This document shows positions 1-19,899 of a DNA stretch of 20,448 bases, piece after piece. The stretch comes from a virus. The position numbers and the translations under genes were made by a program. Below the pieces are notes generated by a model, which was not told the origin of the DNA, did not search any database, and was given only the letters and a program-made list of their open reading frames with translations. The first letter of the stretch is position 1, and each line of letters starts with the position of its first letter. Where the stretch lies: positions 1-20,448 of the IMG/VR virus record IMGVR_UViG_3300040770_000293; one strand, 5' to 3'.

Positions 1-123
1 CAGCTACTAATCGCAATAGCGGGATTTGGCTGAAATTAAAACGGTTTTGTACTTGGAGAAATTGGCGAAACCTCCAAAAAAATTGAATTTTAACCCGCTA
101 CATCGCCTAGTAGCAGAACGTTA
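1..123 (+). repeat. attC-like recombination site (left end truncated by window edge)
   Basis: Arms GCTACTAATCGCAATAGCGGG (3-23) and CCCGCTACATCGCCTAGTAGC (94-114) pair at 16/21 positions, followed by AGAAC-GTTA (120-123); same layout as the 956-1084 site. Confidence 0.75.
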
Positions 124-206
124 TATGATAGCTTAACCAAAATTCCGCAGAAAACTAAAACGGAAAAATAGCAGTTTGAAAGCGTTACTAAATAAAAAAT
201 AATATA

Positions 207-458
207 ATGCAATACCAACCAACAGAAGAGCAAATCCAAAAATGGGGGCAAAAAATCACAGAGTCCTTATATGGGTTTACAAAAGAGGATTTAGAACCAT
301 TATTTGAAAAATATGTTTTACCTATTTACAGAATGATTGCAAGAAGCCCTGTAGAAAAATCTAAATGGAAAATTGTAAACCGTGAAACAGGAGAAGAGTA
401 CTCTTTAGAAACAGCCAGAAAAGAGTTAATAGAACAGAAATTAGTTAATTGGAAATAA
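207..458 (+). CDS. hypothetical protein directly downstream of an attC-like site (cassette gene)
   Basis: 83 aa ORF with A/T-rich leader and ATG; overlaps the next gene convergently at 441-458. Confidence 0.7.
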   Translation: MQYQPTEEQIQKWGQKITESLYGFTKEDLEPLFEKYVLPIYRMIARSPVEKSKWKIVNRETGEEYSLETARKELIEQKLVNWK

Positions 459-653
459 TTCACTTTCAGGAATAGCAAATTCATCTCCTCCATCAGGATA
501 TGCTTTATATAGCCAAGCAATTCTTTGAGCAGGTGTTCTATCCCAACGAGATATTAAAATAACTGTTGTTTCTAACTTTGAGTTAGGATTTATAATTTTT
601 AAAATATCTCCTTCTTGATATTTTGGCACTTTTAGTTCAGACTTTTTAGCCAT
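441..653 (-). CDS. small hypothetical protein, SH3/KOW-like beta pattern
   Basis: PKYQEGDILKI...WLY...IPESEL; 2-nt gap to the upstream minus-strand ORF. Confidence 0.7.
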   Translation of the reverse strand: MAKKSELKVPKYQEGDILKIINPNSKLETTVILISRWDRTPAQRIAWLYKAYPDGGDEFAIPESELFPIN

Positions 654-655
654 AA

Positions 656-877
656 TTATTGTTTTAATCTTAATTCAGAGTGATAGACTCTATATTCTTT
701 TTTTGTTTCAATGTCTCTAATCCAATAGTTTTCTATAAAAGGTCTATCTTCAAAACTTCCGTCCTTATTTGGTAAAACATCTATAACTTGATACGAAGCG
801 TCAGAAAGGACACCATTACGGGAAGTGTACAATACTAAATCATTAACAGTAAATTTACAAGAACCAAATTTATGCAT
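656..877 (-). CDS. small hypothetical protein, SH3/KOW-like beta pattern
   Basis: CKFTVNDLVLY...YWI...VYHSEL; A/T-rich leader and promoter-like sequence upstream on the minus strand. Confidence 0.7.
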   Translation of the reverse strand: MHKFGSCKFTVNDLVLYTSRNGVLSDASYQVIDVLPNKDGSFEDRPFIENYWIRDIETKKEYRVYHSELRLKQ

Positions 878-887
878 AATAAATATT

Positions 888-923
888 TTTGCCGAAAGTA
901 CTAAAAAGAATTATATTTGGAAA
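888..923. promoter_or_regulatory. overlapping divergent Bacteroidota-type promoters
   Basis: + strand TTTG(888-891)-N20-TATATTTG(912-919), a full consensus match; - strand TTTC(923-920)-N19-TACTTTCG(900-893), one mismatch per box. Confidence 0.55.
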
Positions 924-955
924 GGAATATTAAAATAAAAACAACAACGAAGTCA

Positions 956-1084
956 TAACAGCGGTTTGTAGCTATTGTGGCAATTAGGCTTATTTGGAAT
1001 AATTTTGGCGGAAATAAAAATTAATAATAATCGGTTTTGAATGGTGTTGACTCCGCCACAACAGCTTCAAGCCGCAGAACGTTG
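956..1084 (+). repeat. attC-like recombination site
   Basis: TAAC(956-959)-A-GCGGTTTGTAGCTATTGTGGC(961-981)...GCCACAACAGCTTCAAGCCGC(1055-1075)-AGAAC-GTTG(1081-1084); 18/21 Watson-Crick pairs. Confidence 0.8.
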
Positions 1085-4348: not shown

Positions 4349-5434
4349 ATGGCAACAGGTAAGATAAATCACATAGGTGAGGTTTTTGGAAATTTAGAAG
4401 TAGTAGGCGAAGCGGAAGGCTATAAACAACCAAGTGGTAAGTTTGTAAAAAAAGTTTTATGCAAATGCTTATGCGGAACAGAAAAAATAATAGTTTACAA
4501 AGATTTAAAAAGTGGGGATACTAAATCCTGTGGATGCTATAGAAACAGTTTTAAAAACGACATTGTTAAAAATAATGTTTATGGGTTATTGACTATCATA
4601 GAAGAAGTTGAAAAATACATAAGTCCTGGCGGAGCTAAAACTAGAAGGGTGCTTTGCGAATGTGCTTGTGGTAAAAAGAAAGAGTACAACTTACAAACTT
4701 TGAAGTCGGGTAATAATAAAGATTGCGGTTGTGTTTTTAAAAAAGAGGTCGCTCTAAAAAGAAAAATAAAAGAAGATATCACTGTTAAAAAAGAGGTTAC
4801 TTTAAAACCAGAAGATACAAAAGAAGAGCAATGGAAAGAATCAATAATAAGCAGTGATTACTTAGTAAGTACTTTAGGAAGAATGTTTTCAACTAAATCA
4901 AATAACTACTTAAATACTAACAGAACTAGCATTAGGTTACATATAAATAAAATTGAAAAAGAATATGTCATATCTAAAATTATTTACGAAACATTTATAG
5001 AAAAAATAGACACTGTTAAATACCTTATATTTTTTATAGATGAAAACAATTTAAATTCTTCACTAAATAATTTATTTCTAGCTCGGCGTACAAAAGTAGG
5101 TAGTTCAAATTGGGTTACTAGGTTATACGCTGCTATGAAAACTAATGGAAAAGAAAAGTTAGGACAGAGATTTAAAGAAAGAACTGTTTCTAAAAAACAA
5201 TTAATAGATTTATATAAAGAACAAAAAGGATTATCTTATTTTTTAGGTATTAAAATGGATATGACGTGTAGCGATAAATTACTATCAGTTTCTGTTGATA
5301 GAATAGATAACGATAAGGATTATATAGAGGGAAATATTAGATTGGTGACAAGATTTGAAAATATGGGTAGACGGGATGCAACTTCAGAAGAATTTTCTAA
5401 CTTTTGTAAAAAATTAAAATACAATAATTTTTAA
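4349..5434 (+). CDS. composite HNH-type (homing) endonuclease
   Basis: Two N-terminal G-x-L-x-V...LCxCxCG...LKSG...CGC zinc-binding repeats, a NUMOD4-like segment EQWK...YLVSTLGR, a degenerate HNH (FFIDENNLNSSLNNL) and a C-terminal SVDRIDNDKDYIEGNIRLVTRFEN nuclease motif. Confidence 0.8.
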   Translation: MATGKINHIGEVFGNLEVVGEAEGYKQPSGKFVKKVLCKCLCGTEKIIVYKDLKSGDTKSCGCYRNSFKNDIVKNNVYGLLTIIEEVEKYISPGGAKTRRVLCECACGKKKEYNLQTLKSGNNKDCGCVFKKEVALKRKIKEDITVKKEVTLKPEDTKEEQWKESIISSDYLVSTLGRMFSTKSNNYLNTNRTSIRLHINKIEKEYVISKIIYETFIEKIDTVKYLIFFIDENNLNSSLNNLFLARRTKVGSSNWVTRLYAAMKTNGKEKLGQRFKERTVSKKQLIDLYKEQKGLSYFLGIKMDMTCSDKLLSVSVDRIDNDKDYIEGNIRLVTRFENMGRRDATSEEFSNFCKKLKYNNF

Positions 5435-8455: not shown

Positions 8456-8487
8456 TTTGTATAAACAGACAAAAAACACTATCTTTG
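8456..8487 (+). promoter_or_regulatory. Bacteroidota sigma70-type promoter
   Basis: TTTG(8456-8459)-N20-TATCTTTG(8480-8487). Confidence 0.75.
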
Positions 8488-9956: not shown

Positions 9957-10370
9957 ATGTTAGATACTAGAGAATTACAAACAGAAAGAGAAGATTTAGA
10001 ACAACAGATTTTAGATAGTTTTTTACAAGAGTTTCCACAATATGAAGATATGACTGATAACTTTGAAGATATTCGTTTTGAAGAGGAAGAAATTGAGAGT
10101 TGGAAAGAAGAGTGGTTAGATGAGATAGTAACCATTACAGATATTGAAAAATTAGAATATGAAATTGGTTCAGAATGGGAGTATGGAGTAACTTTGATTG
10201 AGGAAGATGAGTTTGAAGATTATTGTGAGGAATTTGTTGAAGACTGTTATGGTTTAAAAGATGTTCCCTCTTTAATTAGAAATAATATTAATTGGGAGGG
10301 CGTTGTATACGATATGAGACAAGATTATTCAGAGGTTGTTTATAATGGTAATACATATTTATACAGATGA
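9957..10370 (+). CDS. ArdA-like antirestriction / DNA-mimic protein
   Basis: About 30% D+E; FEDYCEEFVEDCYGLKDVPSLIRNNINWEGVVYDM resembles the ArdA C-terminal domain. Confidence 0.65.
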   Translation: MLDTRELQTEREDLEQQILDSFLQEFPQYEDMTDNFEDIRFEEEEIESWKEEWLDEIVTITDIEKLEYEIGSEWEYGVTLIEEDEFEDYCEEFVEDCYGLKDVPSLIRNNINWEGVVYDMRQDYSEVVYNGNTYLYR

Positions 10371-11719: not shown

Positions 11720-12769
11720 ATGGTAAAATTTGAATGGACTTTAGAATTATGTAAACAGGAATCTATAAAATACACTAGAAAAATCGACTTTTTAAAATCT
11801 TGTGGACAAGCTTATAGGATAGCTCATAAAAAAGGATGGTTAAATGAGATTTGTTCTCATATGGTTGAAGGTAGAAAACCTAATAGGTATTGGAACAAAG
11901 AAAATTGTGCGAAAGAAGCAAGTAAGTATAAACACAAGAAAGATTTTCAAGAAAACAACCCTTCTGCTTATGTTGTTGCACATAGAAGTGGATGGCTTGA
12001 AGAAATATGTAGTCATATGATTCCTTTAGGTAATATACAAAAAAGGTATATTTATAAGGCAATTTTTTATGATGATTGTGTTTATATTGGTTTAACGTGT
12101 AATCCTGAAAAGAGGTTTAATAGCCATTTATCAGATGAAAAAAGTTCAGTTTATAAACATATGTTAGAAACTAACAGTAAACCTGTTTTTGAGTTAATCA
12201 GTGATACACTTTATTCAAAAGAGGACGCTTCCGAATTGGAGGATTTAATAGTCGAAGAATATAAAAAATTAGGTAAGTGCATCCTTAATAAAAATAAAGC
12301 AGGGGGATTAGGAGGAGGAAAAATAAAATGGACTTTTGAAATATGTAGATTAGAGGCGTTAAAATATACTACTAAAAAAGAATTTATTTTAAACAATGAA
12401 AATGCTTATAATGCGTGTTTAAAAAATAAATGGATAGGTTTGGTATGTTCTCATATGGTTGAACTTAAAAAACTTAACAATTATTGGACTAAAGAAAGAT
12501 GCCATGAAAAAGCATTAAAATACTCTTTACGTTCTCAATTTATAAAAGAAGCTAATAGTATTTACAGCAAAGCCTTTGCAAAAGGATGGGCGGAGGAAAT
12601 TTGTTCACATATGATAGATACTAGAAAATCAAGAAATTATTGGAATTACGAGAATTGTAAAACAGAGGCAAAAAAATACACAAATAGGTTTAAATTTAAA
12701 ATAGGTTCGAGCGGAGCTTTTGGATGGGCTAGAAAAAATAATTGGTTAGAAGATTTCTTTCCAAAATAA
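11720..12769 (+). CDS. GIY-YIG homing endonuclease with five ~52 aa repeats
   Basis: YIY...VYIGLT...KRFNSH...ASELE...ILN catalytic domain, flanked by two plus three WxxExCxxEAxKY...AY...GWLxEICSHM repeats. Confidence 0.85.
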   Translation: MVKFEWTLELCKQESIKYTRKIDFLKSCGQAYRIAHKKGWLNEICSHMVEGRKPNRYWNKENCAKEASKYKHKKDFQENNPSAYVVAHRSGWLEEICSHMIPLGNIQKRYIYKAIFYDDCVYIGLTCNPEKRFNSHLSDEKSSVYKHMLETNSKPVFELISDTLYSKEDASELEDLIVEEYKKLGKCILNKNKAGGLGGGKIKWTFEICRLEALKYTTKKEFILNNENAYNACLKNKWIGLVCSHMVELKKLNNYWTKERCHEKALKYSLRSQFIKEANSIYSKAFAKGWAEEICSHMIDTRKSRNYWNYENCKTEAKKYTNRFKFKIGSSGAFGWARKNNWLEDFFPK

Positions 12770-13192: not shown

Positions 13193-13420
13193 ATGAATAC
13201 ATACTTGAATACTCTAATGGAATCAGAAGAAATTCAGTTTTATTTAAGAAACTTTGGAGGAGGTTTAAAGAAAAATCCAACATATAGAAAATATGAAAAT
13301 TTAAGTAAAACAGAAATACTTAGATTATATGATTTAGTTAATAATAGAACTTCTAATTTATCTAAAAAGGAAAGAGATTTAGTTATTTATTTCGCCGAAA
13401 AACAACTTAAAAAGATTTAA
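13193..13420 (+). CDS. hypothetical protein
   Basis: 75 aa, operon packing. Confidence 0.75.
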   Translation: MNTYLNTLMESEEIQFYLRNFGGGLKKNPTYRKYENLSKTEILRLYDLVNNRTSNLSKKERDLVIYFAEKQLKKI

Positions 13421-14241: not shown

Positions 14242-14620
14242 GGATATACTTTTACAGAAAATAAAAGATAAAAAATATAATCACGAACAGTTATTAAGTT
14301 GGGTAACAGTTTTACCAGCAAATCCTGAAAAAAGAAAACCTATTGAATATAAAGCAGGAGATGTTCTTATGCACGGAGTATTTAAGCACCCTTACATACT
14401 TTTAAAGAAGAGAAAAACAGATTGGGTTTGTGGTTTATTAACTTCAGAAGAAAATTGTCCAGAAATATTAGAAGTTTGTCAATCCAGGTTTTTCTCAACT
14501 AATTACATAACTAAAGCATTATTTACAACAACAGAAATACAAGGTAGTTTTATTAATGTTTATGGAAATGATTCTCACCTAAAAAAGGTTTTAATTAAAC
14601 TAAAAGAAAATTTAAAATGA
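14234..14620 (+). CDS. hypothetical phage protein
   Basis: 128 aa. Confidence 0.8.
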   Translation: MDKDILLQKIKDKKYNHEQLLSWVTVLPANPEKRKPIEYKAGDVLMHGVFKHPYILLKKRKTDWVCGLLTSEENCPEILEVCQSRFFSTNYITKALFTTTEIQGSFINVYGNDSHLKKVLIKLKENLK

Positions 14621-15045
14621 AAAAATTAATTATAATATTATTATTCCCTTTATTAGGGTATAGTCAAAATACAGTATCAACCTTAGTAGGTTACAAATCA
14701 TTTGAAGTAAACTTTAAAATGAAGGGAGATTTAAATTACGGAGTTGCTGTTTCTATAACTGACGCAAAAGAAGTTGCTAAAAGAGCTACAAGAATGGATC
14801 ATCCAAATAAACATATTGCAAAAGACAAACTAACACCTTCACTGTTTTTCTTAATTGGAGCTACTTTTGAAGATATTACAATTACAGGTAAATTAGGTGC
14901 AACTTATTTTGAACAAAATATAAACGGCAAAAAAGAAGCTCAAAATATTTATAGAAGTGTAGGGGTGCAAGTCCAATATAAAAAATTTATATTCTCTTAT
15001 GATAGTGCAAATTCAGCTATGATAGGTTATGAAATTACATTATAA
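14617..15045 (+). CDS. exported protein, probable small outer-membrane beta-barrel
   Basis: Signal peptide MKKLIIILLFPLLGYS/Q, alternating hydrophobic beta strands, C-terminal IGYEITL. Confidence 0.65.
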   Translation: MKKLIIILLFPLLGYSQNTVSTLVGYKSFEVNFKMKGDLNYGVAVSITDAKEVAKRATRMDHPNKHIAKDKLTPSLFFLIGATFEDITITGKLGATYFEQNINGKKEAQNIYRSVGVQVQYKKFIFSYDSANSAMIGYEITL

Positions 15046-15227: not shown

Positions 15228-15455
15228 ATGAAAAAAGTATTAATTGTAGGCGCAGATATTCCTATGGGAGCGCAAATAGCAAAATCAATGCAAGAAATAG
15301 AAAGAGGAATAGAAATAGTGACTAATAATCACGAAATTAAAGATGTAATGAGAAGTGAATGGTTGCTTAAAAATGAAGTTATAGAGCCATTGATTACTAT
15401 TACTGATAAAAATGGAAATTACTTTGAAAAACCAAAATCTAAATATCATAAATAA
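15228..15455 (+). CDS. hypothetical protein
   Basis: 75 aa; its stop TAA is part of TAAC 15453-15456. Confidence 0.7.
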   Translation: MKKVLIVGADIPMGAQIAKSMQEIERGIEIVTNNHEIKDVMRSEWLLKNEVIEPLITITDKNGNYFEKPKSKYHK

Positions 15456-15571
15456 CGTAATCGTAGCCTTGCTACTAGCTGTTATAGGTTGTGGCGGGTA
15501 GATTCGGCAAATAGACCTTATCGTGTGTTAGGGATATACCACGAAATACTAATCAATCAAAATTTATAAAA

Positions 15572-15853
15572 ATGACACATTTAGAAAAAGCAAAAGAGAT
15601 TTTAGAAAAAGTCAACAACGGTAAAATATCAAAAGCATTATGGGAAAATTGTTCAAATTATGCTAAAACAGATTTAAAAAGAAAAGCATTTTTGATAGTG
15701 GATGAAGTTGTTTCAGCACTCACGGAACTAGGAGAAGAACTTCATAATAAACAAGGTAGTGATTCTTACAATGCAAGGTGCTTAAATCACGATAAAAAAG
15801 CATATTACAAAGATGTAAGAGAGTCTATCGGTAATTTTAATCTACTCCAATAG
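15572..15853 (+). CDS. hypothetical protein, cassette 1
   Basis: 93 aa; stop lies 2 nt before the cassette end motif. Confidence 0.75.
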   Translation: MTHLEKAKEILEKVNNGKISKALWENCSNYAKTDLKRKAFLIVDEVVSALTELGEELHNKQGSDSYNARCLNHDKKAYYKDVRESIGNFNLLQ

Positions 15854-15864
15854 GCGGTTATCCC

Positions 15865-15987
15865 TAACGGATGGTGCTATACTTAGTGCCGATTTATGAA
15901 AACGAATTATTCTAACTAAAAAAAACGAACTTATGAAAACAGAAGTTAATAATACCGAAAACGAGGCATTGAGTATAGCAGGTGTTA
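15865..15987 (-). repeat. attC-like site (inverted relative to 956-1084)
   Basis: TAAC-GGATGG-TGCTATACTTAGTGCC(15875-15890)...GGCATTGAGTATAGCA(15965-15980)-GGT-GTTA; 14 WC plus 2 G.T pairs. Confidence 0.8.
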
Positions 15988-16229
15988 CCAGTAGTGTTTC
16001 TCATGATGATTGGCTATCAAAATTTAATAAGACAAAAGAGGGTAAAATGTTCAATCTTAATTATGAATTTAAAAGTTTAATTAATCCACTAACAAGAGGC
16101 AGTGTTAATCATTTATCTTATTTATCAAATGCTTTATGGATTGCTGTTAAAGGGACTAAAATGCAAGATGATGCTGAAGAAATGATAAAAAATATTTATC
16201 CTGATTTTTTTAATGATGTTACTAAATAA
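15933..16229 (+). CDS. hypothetical protein, cassette 2 first gene; starts inside the att hairpin loop
   Basis: N-terminal EALSIAGVTSS is encoded by the right arm and the GTTA core. Confidence 0.75.
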   Translation: MKTEVNNTENEALSIAGVTSSVSHDDWLSKFNKTKEGKMFNLNYEFKSLINPLTRGSVNHLSYLSNALWIAVKGTKMQDDAEEMIKNIYPDFFNDVTK

Positions 16230-16232
16230 ACT

Positions 16233-16457
16233 ATGGAAAATCCAAATATAAATACAAAGGTTGTTCATTCTGAATCAAAGAATGCTTGGAATATAATAGG
16301 CACAAGTTTAGGTGCAAAATATAAAATAGCAAGAATACCATATTTAACTACAAGTAATGAAATAATTGATACTACAGAAAAATCAGAAGCGTTAAGACAT
16401 GCGAAATTCATAAGTGAATGTTTCAATAAATCAGATTATATTTTACCGCTACTGTAG
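16233..16457 (+). CDS. hypothetical protein, cassette 2 second gene
   Basis: 74 aa; stop abuts the cassette end motif. Confidence 0.75.
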   Translation: MENPNINTKVVHSESKNAWNIIGTSLGAKYKIARIPYLTTSNEIIDTTEKSEALRHAKFISECFNKSDYILPLL

Positions 16458-16466
16458 CATTACTGG

Positions 16467-16596
16467 TAACGTTTCGCACATAGGCGAAGGCAATTGCTGA
16501 CAAAAAACAATAATTATATTAATTATAAATAACAACAAAATGAAAACAAAATTTAAATTCAATACCCAATTAATTGCTTGCGCTTATGTGCTGTTA
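16467..16596 (-). repeat. attC-like site (inverted)
   Basis: TAAC-GTTTC-GCACATAGGCGAAGGCAATTG(16476-16496)...TAATTGCTTGCGCTTATGTGC(16571-16591)-T-GTTA. Confidence 0.8.
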
Positions 16597-16788
16597 GTAG
16601 CTGTGTTTATTTTTAGCTTAAAAAATAAGATAGTTAAAGAGACAAATTTAGATTATGAAACCTACAAAGTAGTCGAAAAAGTAGAAGATAGTCAAAAAGA
16701 AATAGAAGAAAAAGAATGTGGTCATATTTTCCTTAATAAATATTGTAGGCTTTGTAAAGAATATCGTCTTCGTCAACAGGGTTTCTAA
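16540..16788 (+). CDS. hypothetical membrane-anchored Cys-containing protein, cassette 3; starts inside the att loop
   Basis: Hydrophobic LIACAYVLLVAVFIF is encoded largely by the att arm and core; C-terminal CGH...CRLC. Confidence 0.65.
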   Translation: MKTKFKFNTQLIACAYVLLVAVFIFSLKNKIVKETNLDYETYKVVEKVEDSQKEIEEKECGHIFLNKYCRLCKEYRLRQQGF

Positions 16789-16797
16789 CATTGCTAC

Positions 16798-16880
16798 TAA
16801 CGGAAAAGCTTGTAGCTGTATGCCACCGCAATCGTGAATAAAAGCAGGGAGTTTCTGCATATAGCTACAAGCGTATGTTA
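16798..16880 (-). repeat. attC-like site (inverted)
   Basis: TAAC-GGAAAA-GCTTGTAGCTGTATGC(16808-16823)...GCATATAGCTACAAGC(16857-16872)-GTAT-GTTA; 15 WC plus 1 G.T pair. Confidence 0.8.
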
Positions 16881-16915
16881 GGGCAAGTACGGATTATTAA
16901 ACTAAAAATATTGTT

Positions 16916-17314
16916 ATGAAAAATGAATTAAGAATTGGGAATTTTATTTCAAGATTAGACTTAGGAAGCGGAATACCAAGAACTGAACAAATATTAGAGT
17001 TATTAGAAAAAAGAGCAGTTGCTTCTGGACCTTGTAGAGTAATTATTTTATATGAAGATATTAAACCAATACCGTTAACAGAAGAATGGCTACGCAAATT
17101 TAATGCAGAAAGCTACTTTACTTCTGACCCACAAGAAATACAAGCGAGCAAAGCTTTTAAATTTGGAGATGTAAAAATTCATATGTGTAATGAGGATGTA
17201 GAGGAATTTATGTTTGAATCATTTGAGTTTATTAAAATAAAAACAGTTCATCAGCTACAAAATTTATATTTCGCACTCACAGGAACTGAATTGACTTATG
17301 AAAACAAAACATAG
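16916..17314 (+). CDS. conserved Bacteroidota phage protein, cassette 4
   Basis: NELRIGN...IKPIPLTEEWL...VHQLQNLYFALTG motifs, recalled from a common Bacteroidota phage family. Confidence 0.8.
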   Translation: MKNELRIGNFISRLDLGSGIPRTEQILELLEKRAVASGPCRVIILYEDIKPIPLTEEWLRKFNAESYFTSDPQEIQASKAFKFGDVKIHMCNEDVEEFMFESFEFIKIKTVHQLQNLYFALTGTELTYENKT

Positions 17315-17377
17315 TATTTGCCGTAACTTGTGCATACACGTAACTAATGTGGTAACTCAACACTAAAATAAAGTCCT

Positions 17378-17873: not shown

Positions 17874-17908
17874 AGACTGTTTTATTTTTTATCTCGCCGA
17901 AAAAGTAA

Positions 17909-17916
17909 TATATTTG
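17909..17916 (+). promoter_or_regulatory. -7 promoter box
   Basis: TATATTTG before ATG 17933. Confidence 0.55.
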
Positions 17917-19867: not shown

Positions 19868-19899
19868 TTTGCAAGAGTAAAACATTAGTTGTATATTTG
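19868..19899 (+). promoter_or_regulatory. Bacteroidota sigma70-type promoter
   Basis: TTTG(19868-19871)-N20-TATATTTG(19892-19899). Confidence 0.75.

Follow-up and report, generated by a model that had tools for sequence, protein, structure and literature searches.

The closest described systems are integrons; statements on the papers cited here by PMC number refer to the accessible portions of their text. In integrons, attC sites use extrahelical bases and fold best on the non-coding strand, and promoter-facing cassettes are described as never observed (PMC5027507). An insertion in the recombinase is treated as the mark of IntI, and the formation of new cassettes is called unknown (PMC4889954). 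Surveys find almost no integrons in Bacteroidetes, with one complete integron in Bacteroidetes proper (PMC9024848), and a subgroup of integron-like recombinases whose insertion shows incomplete conservation has been described (PMC8138268). Clusters of attC sites lacking integron integrases (CALINs) are reported from phages, including Polaribacter phage P12002L, and treated as ordinary attC; divergent directions are noted in P12002L, and the accessible text names no cognate recombinase (PMC9892861, Qi et al. 2023). Here we analyze a cassette-like array in the first 20 kb (20,448 nucleotides (nt), hereafter the window) of virus record IMGVR_UViG_3300040770_000293 (98.5 kb, 30% G+C, about 70% complete by estimate). 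We find an array of four units with self-pairing ends, together with hairpin sites, that was probably built by small tyrosine recombinases of Bacteroidota and would resemble an integron with reversed polarity.

A preliminary description of the window, made from its letters, had proposed four consecutive units, each opening with GTTA and a further stretch whose near reverse complement closes the same unit. All four end pairs are present (Table 1). Over the 10 bases past the core, the cognate ends of units 1–4 form 7, 8, 8 and 8 Watson-Crick pairs, compared with 1–6 of 10 in the 12 non-cognate combinations within the window; among non-cognate end pairs from related arrays, just 3.1% reach 7 of 10. 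The terminal open reading frames (ORFs) indeed stop close to the unit ends, the distance from the end of the stop codon to the last base being 15, 13, 13 and 13 nt in units 1–4. In the wider family, pairing of the two ends within a unit amounts to 6.9 of 10 positions, versus 3.5 with shuffled partners and 3.5 across a site (189 units). Since the ends pair within units and not across sites, the complete two-fold symmetric substrate arises only in the circularized unit.

The hairpins placed between the units by the same description are present. Three full sites (B, C and D) have stems of 16–21 positions, while the site before unit 1 (site A) has decayed and no hairpin follows unit 4. In a stem scan, sites B, C and D are the sole hairpin stems with TAAC/GTTA cores in the 98.5-kb record, and five shuffles gave 0, 0, 1, 0 and 1; all three sites retain their cores and G·T pairs. 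Site A was missed by the scan, and a model of the hairpin site, built from 40 sites, gives just a weak match nearby (15394–15494, E=0.002). The terminal end at 17324 looks like the half-sites found in chromosomes, yet it does not fit the consensus half-site pattern used.

As had been proposed, the sites are conserved in structure rather than sequence. The inner stem covaries (0.73, versus 0.16 when shuffled and at most 0.13 when slid), with 16 of 18 pairs changing on both sides. The coding strand is the better folder in 191 of 222 distinct sites, which hold 441 G·T versus 76 A·C positions. The tenth position is a G·T pair in the inner arm of 183/199 sites and, in 77% of units, in the outer arm that the two unit ends make up together. 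The 5′ spacer measures 8–9 nt in 179/199 sites versus 5 nt on the 3′ side, and the inner stem lacks a conserved bulge. The longest ORF lies on the better-folding strand in 147 of 151 units, and in 64 of 147 units the start codon is inside the upstream hairpin, as in units 2 and 3 here.

The array had been expected to be driven by an integrase encoded elsewhere. A tyrosine recombinase is indeed linked to such arrays in relatives, although it is not IntI and none is found in this record. In a related phage, with an exonuclease 60% identical to that of the window, a similar array (ends matching at 12–13 of 14 positions in the four units scored) is followed by a truncated integrase ORF (PF13495). 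Used as a query, this ORF retrieved 53 viral loci, several of them near-duplicates, of which 43 encode a protein of 259–269 amino acids (aa; a 266-aa tyrosine recombinase) and 10 carry truncated ORFs. These loci hold 204 sites in 211 kb upstream of the recombinase versus 0 in 251 kb downstream. At least one site is present at 45 of the 53, and six of the other eight have less than 200 nt of upstream flank. In phages, a conserved half-site lies about 45–70 nt 5′ of the recombinase start codon, its sequence variable up to the TAA and then constant per platform. At least 46 of 47 proteins retain the six catalytic residues. In five relatives of the window phage, sites and recombinase occur together in two and are both missing from the other three, two of which are complete. 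In named phage isolates, the closest recombinase matches are annotated integrases (36–39%).

The same association is seen in chromosomes. Of 201 genomes sampled across the phylum of one Chitinophagaceae genome (Bacteroidota), 51 carry a recombinase homologue (about 40% identity). Matches to the site model were obtained in 33 of 40 chosen genomes, 26 of which had been picked for carrying a homologue. The chromosomal half-site lies 3′ of the recombinase gene. Of ten regions picked for sites near the gene, nine have convergent arrays 3′ of it and one has the array at its 5′ side, co-oriented as in phages. In both layouts the cargo genes point towards the recombinase and half-site. In a related phage (L084) the cargo includes a DNA methyltransferase gene (PF01555) and a second methyltransferase-like ORF (382–1137, 1308–2096), directly 5′ of a truncated recombinase. 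We note three further features of these loci: (I) one phage record (G206) carries two divergent recombinases (L238 and L239, about 40% identical to recombinase P0001), each after its own array and half-site; (II) at L202, L203 and L211 an inverted repeat separates the stop codon of a convergent chromosomal recombinase from the half-site; and (III) the chromosomal recombinases of L167, L173, L181 and L185 lie in open frames of 350–590 aa with long N-terminal extensions, which the phage form lacks.

The linked enzymes are not the IntI-type recombinases that had been predicted. All nine linked proteins tested against the integron-integrase model TIGR02249 score 146–221 bits, versus a cut-off of 265, and no protein in five array-rich genomes exceeds this cut-off. 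The IntI insertion (about 35 residues near patch III) is missing, the linked enzymes being about 42 residues shorter there. Similarly, the catalytic lysine is separated from the H-x-x-R motif by 54–61 residues in 22 of 22 proteins, versus 102–103 in the two IntI-type proteins measured. In a phylogenetic tree, the enzymes of phages and chromosomes group together (99/95), separated from host XerC/D-like proteins and from four IntI-type proteins (100/99), these references being taken from annotated phages, as an IntI search in the class of genome G209 gave none; the order of the enzyme clade relative to IntI and archaeal XerA is not resolved. The predicted fold (predicted local distance difference test score 83.5) best matches XerA and IntI4, and the best sequence matches are XerA-type. 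Linked proteins fall below the cut-offs of the XerC and XerD models, and five of six chromosomal proteins narrowly pass the archaeal XerA model. Judged from their sequences, the linked enzymes are a separate clade of small tyrosine recombinases, not IntI. The integron-like subgroup with an incompletely conserved insertion, as far as the accessible text of PMC8138268 describes it, may include them.

Comparison of relatives indicates what travels with the gene. In 12 homologous unit pairs, the upstream hairpin alone is kept in 4, both hairpins in 2, neither in 6, and the downstream hairpin alone in 0. Related contigs differ from the window at the cores, as had been anticipated, their matches beginning or stopping at the TAAC cores 15864, 15869, 16798 and 17327. 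Copies of unit 4 about 95% identical to that of the window occur in contigs of other studies, and two end exactly at 17327. More generally, unit 4 matches start at, or just past, the site D TAAC and either finish at 17327 or continue into other hairpins, and different hairpins follow the end of unit 1 at 15869 in other contigs. A variant of unit 4 (contig sets X2, X3 and X4) enters a hairpin-like arm 17 nt early, at 17310, where the gene end reads AAAC, which suggests use of a secondary site. A joint from 16875 to 15526, seen in two contig sets, was considered as a circle of the array and rejected, as only about 45 nt match on each side; it is another cassette, combining a D-type hairpin with a unit-1-type frame. 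No empty allele of the locus was found: viral contigs gave no relative of the 86-aa ORF downstream, and relatives of the upstream ORF lie in other arrays.

The idea that the ends are specific to each cassette was not borne out, as the same end pairs surround other genes in other phages. With the 5′ end of unit 1 as sole query, 14 loci were retrieved from viral contigs, 12 of which share its 3′ end, including the imperfect pairing, around 11 different ORFs. Likewise, the 5′ end of unit 4 as sole query retrieved 8 loci, 6 with the same frame of ends around other ORFs. None of the ORFs in unit-1 and unit-4 frames elsewhere is homologous to those of the window, and a few are distantly related to each other. 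The reuse claim concerns these two families, picked by their 5′ ends; a general test of frame reuse is circular over the first 12 bases and gives background beyond them. Similarity of the frames runs through the leader towards the ATG and returns at the stop codon or close to it; this codon is often a TAG that directly adjoins the end. In a set of 217 units, the TAA of the core serves as the stop in 52, and 48 stops finish exactly 13 nt before the unit end.

Genes, frames and hairpins are also found in other combinations. The 98-aa gene of unit 2 occurs alone in the same frame at L042/L043 (82% identical from 15983), while its 74-aa gene occurs in a different frame at L087, and a D-type hairpin elsewhere precedes both the unit-1 and the unit-4 frame. 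As far as these comparisons of sequence reach, hairpin, frame and gene reassort, and the frames are reusable rather than gene-specific tags. Among distant homologues, the unit 4 gene is bracketed in 0 of 81 and the 74-aa gene is unbracketed in 10 of 12; therefore, genes enter or leave frames. That the cargo boundaries are so exact might be due to a capture step; alternatively, selection for intact genes might have acted on phage mosaicism of the ordinary kind. In sum, a phage cassette-shuffling system with phage-type cargo, as first proposed, stands with respect to the system itself, its structure-conserved sites and the recombinase link in relatives, but not with respect to IntI identity, integron polarity or gene-specific ends.

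These observations suggest recombination of folded sites as single strands. In the mechanism that we propose, the mobile unit would consist of hairpin, leader, gene and end. The recombinase would act on the folded coding strand, cutting its 5′ arm at AA|C; once the circle is excised, pairing of its two ends would create the full outer binding arm, and the circle would then insert at the double-stranded half-site adjoining the recombinase gene. The cargo, facing the half-site, would depend for its transcription on phage promoters located before the array, with no promoter equivalent to the integron Pc. For an orphan array such as the present one, the enzyme might be supplied by the host, by a co-infecting phage or by the 30% of the genome that the record lacks. 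Hypothetically, hairpins might be swapped if folded circles underwent a second strand exchange. An extended version of this scheme is speculative and, in our view, unlikely to hold in full: a second single-strand system parallel to integrons, in which an insertion-less recombinase reads the symmetric G·T mispairs and completes both exchanges between folded circles, swapping hairpins, while the frames take up unrelated phage ORFs from start to stop. If it were true, Bacteroidota phages would display cassette creation under way.

Several points weigh against the proposed origin and mechanism. Neither Pfam, nor recombinase P0001, nor a 47-protein profile run over six frames detects a tyrosine recombinase in this record. 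The six homologous pairs that share neither hairpin include all three that involve the window, and a single AA|C cut explains neither these nor the hairpins that switch partner at the GTTA side. No excised circles were found in eight contig sets, which drop rare forms. The site structure was derived from the same sequences on which it was scored, and pair counts and covariation lean towards it. Within the array the outer arm is mismatched (3.5/10), which leaves the excision route unexplained, and spacer length differs between the double-stranded half-site and the folded site. The unbracketed distant homologues of the unit 4 gene point the same way. GTT..AAC end pairs at 12/14 complementarity number 31 genome-wide. 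End complementarity by itself is not above chance in this AT-rich genome, and the signal therefore lies in ends and hairpins together. End pairs at 27813, 49484 and 75014, without hairpins, look like chance and were set aside.

Among other explanations, the one closest to ours shares the same origin and holds that the array is now a frozen relic, no longer mobile. We take it seriously while considering it somewhat improbable. It would account for the decay of site A and of a second array in the window, for the end of unit 4, which reads CCG where the family form has CCC, for the lack of a recombinase in the record and for the truncation of 10 of the 53 phage recombinase ORFs; but cores and G·T pairs are intact at B, C and D, copies of unit 4 in other contexts share about 95% identity with it, and the record is 70% complete and ends within the second array. 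The array here may be served in trans or frozen. That the recombinase acts like Xer on double-stranded DNA, as in pdif modules, with the hairpins kept for a role in RNA such as translation or processing, appears quite improbable to us. XerA-type enzymes are the best sequence and fold matches, the insertion that IntI needs for single-strand recognition is absent, and the better folder is the coding and hence the mRNA strand, all of which speak for this explanation. It does not account for a unit's ends covarying across the gene when they abut the hairpin only in the circle, nor for arms whose sequence varies freely while pairing is kept, and the fixed mispair at symmetric positions fits a folded DNA substrate.

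Ordinary integron cassettes with canonical attC, that is, a CALIN moved by IntI, would share the AAC/GTT cores, the sites of about 125 nt and the promoterless single genes, and CALINs are reported in phages (PMC9892861). This explanation is nevertheless largely refuted and in our view very improbable: the linked enzymes and five array-rich genomes lie below the integron-integrase cut-off given above, the site model gives 0 matches in two canonical integron phages, the hairpin accompanies the downstream gene, and the P12002L site discussed below was not recombined by IntI1. We give even less credence to the hairpins being independent miniature mobile repeats or structured RNAs, with incidental matches flanking the genes. 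Hairpin families do recur beside different neighbours, and single sites occur in many phages; however, complementarity or duplication is lacking across the site (3.5/10) and strong across the gene, the recombinase linkage is strictly one-sided, no Rfam family lies at the sites, and no empty and filled alleles differing by a hairpin alone were seen. An array built by small Bacteroidota recombinases thus remains our preferred explanation.

Table 1. Coordinates of the array, its sites and other features of the window.
Feature	Position	Strand	Remarks
Hairpin site truncated by contig end	1..123	-	model 31 bits, E=2e-5; stops just past the G of the GTTA core
Second array, decayed	1..1084	-	two sites and two small ORFs, pointing off the contig
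Extra hairpin site	946..1084	-	model 58 bits, E=2e-12; outside training set
Two free-standing homing-endonuclease-like genes	4349..5434 and 11720..12769		HNH-type, GIY-YIG-like; amid small early-type genes
137-aa ORF	9957..10370		acidic; weak match to anti-restriction protein family PHROG 2059, E=8e-4
142-aa ORF	14617..15045		signal-peptide-like start; without family match
75-aa ORF	15228..15455	+	probably an ex-cassette gene, 5′ end lost; 76%-identical homologue in a bracketed unit of the L163 array
Site A, decayed	15476..15530	+	core now TAGC (15476); 5′ arm degenerate, 3′ arm consensus-like
Unit 1	15527..15868	+	end frame and 93-aa ORF (15572-15853); ends paired 7/10
Site B	15865..15987	+	loop contains start codon of 98-aa ORF; model 83 bits, member of training set
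Unit 2	15984..16470	+	98-aa ORF (15933-16229) and 74-aa ORF (16233-16457) sharing one frame
Site C	16467..16596	+	loop contains start codon of 82-aa ORF; model 87 bits, member of training set
Unit 3	16593..16801	+	82-aa ORF (16540-16788); ends paired 8/10, G·T at position 7
Site D	16798..16880	+	short class, 75 nt between cores; same 3′ arm before two different frames in other phages
Unit 4	16877..17327	+	132-aa ORF (16916-17314), PHROG 10066 of unknown function
Terminal half-site	17324..17345	+	candidate attI-like insertion site or secondary site; resembles chromosomal half-sites

The function of the cargo is not apparent from its families: the window genes gave 0 Pfam families above cut-off and 0 PADLOC matches, with two PHROGs of unknown function and unnamed Atlas clusters only. 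The 82-aa ORF of unit 3 has a hydrophobic N-terminal stretch and no family above cut-off, and a search of metagenome contigs with the unit 1 protein gave only three short weak matches. A recombinase of the second array would be expected beyond position 1, where this array leaves the contig.

Around the array, the window contains small co-oriented ORFs together with homing endonucleases and an exonuclease. The exonuclease has matches in 28 phage records (14 Cellulophaga, 11 Flavobacterium and 3 uncultured); since its relatives are mostly Cellulophaga and Flavobacterium phages, the host is probably a member of Bacteroidota. About 890 nt separate the array end from the exonuclease gene, and relative L083 has a unit, a half-site and a recombinase about 2 kb ahead of this gene. 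In relative L084, a secreted-looking ORF similar to the 142-aa ORF lies 5′ of the exonuclease. Intergenic motifs that we take to follow a Bacteroidota-type promoter pattern lie at 888–919, 1168–1198, 8456–8487, 13378–13402, 17880–17916 and 19868–19899; six are found in the window versus 2.2 expected, and 0 lie inside the array, where promoter scans likewise gave no excess of promoter-like sites.

One lead for the identity of the hairpins, the Flavo-1 RNA (RF01705), was rejected, with no match in the window array or in five phage loci. Three chromosomal arrays gave one match (L206, 972–1060; 39 bits, cut-off 42), about 200 nt upstream of the recombinase and not at a site. PMC9723704 and PMC2864571 name Flavo-1, with no link to cassettes in their accessible portions. 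Those portions, like the ones of PMC8618304 and PMC8565304, hold nothing specific on the present system, and no description of it was found by a literature search leaving out most subscription papers.

Another close described case is the CALIN of P12002L, which shares attC-like sites among the methyltransferase genes of a Bacteroidota phage. Its P12002L_attC1 was the sole site of six that IntI1 did not recombine (PMC9892861). We find this site on the coding strand just before the methyltransferase gene gp35, and the ends of the gp35 unit pair at 8 of 10 positions. By geometry and end pairing alone, P12002L_attC1 appears to be a site of the present type; the site model gives no match on P12002L at E 0.05.

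If the array is what we propose, several consequences follow. Surveys find almost no integrons in Bacteroidetes, yet the sites match most of the chosen genomes and fill phage arrays; therefore, this large phylum and its phages may hold a gene-capture system missed by current tools. An enzyme without the element thought necessary for hairpin recombination tests what the chemistry requires. Unrelated ORFs enclosed by the same end pairs, and a gene that occurs in two different frames, provide defined junctions for studying cassette formation, and the DNA methyltransferase cargo found elsewhere bears on phage counter-defence.

Xer and XerA recombinases, with dif-flanked (pdif) modules, form a further comparison system. 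Like them, the phage form is a short two-domain recombinase without an arm-binding domain, with XerA as its best sequence and fold match, and its sites have two roughly symmetric arms around a spacer of 6–7 nt. In contrast to Xer and pdif, arm pairing is conserved here rather than sequence, a single enzyme lies beside a polar array, and host XerC/D-like proteins belong to a different clade from the linked enzymes. The 'reverse' integrons of Treponema share with the phage platforms a recombinase on the strand of the cassette genes; they have a true IntI and canonical attC (PMC4889954), whereas here the sites are inverted and the array precedes the recombinase gene.

The likeness to integrons in general is extensive: an array of units that each hold a single gene without a promoter, a tyrosine recombinase next to it, AAC/GTT cores, structure-conserved sites, one strand that folds better via G·T, ends that pair within the unit, a main site class of about 125 nt, and orphan arrays. 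The array works like an integron and yet, by the tests of integron membership, is not one. Its linked enzymes form a separate clade without the IntI insertion, and its ends pair over about 13 nt rather than 7. In place of the extrahelical bases and two 5-nt spacers of attC, it has an uneven central loop and, in each arm, a G·T at a fixed position, and the strand that folds is the coding one here and the non-coding one in attC. Each hairpin precedes its gene, whose start it often encodes, while attC follows its gene. Finally, the genes here face the proposed insertion site, whereas in integrons Pc at attI drives the cassettes.

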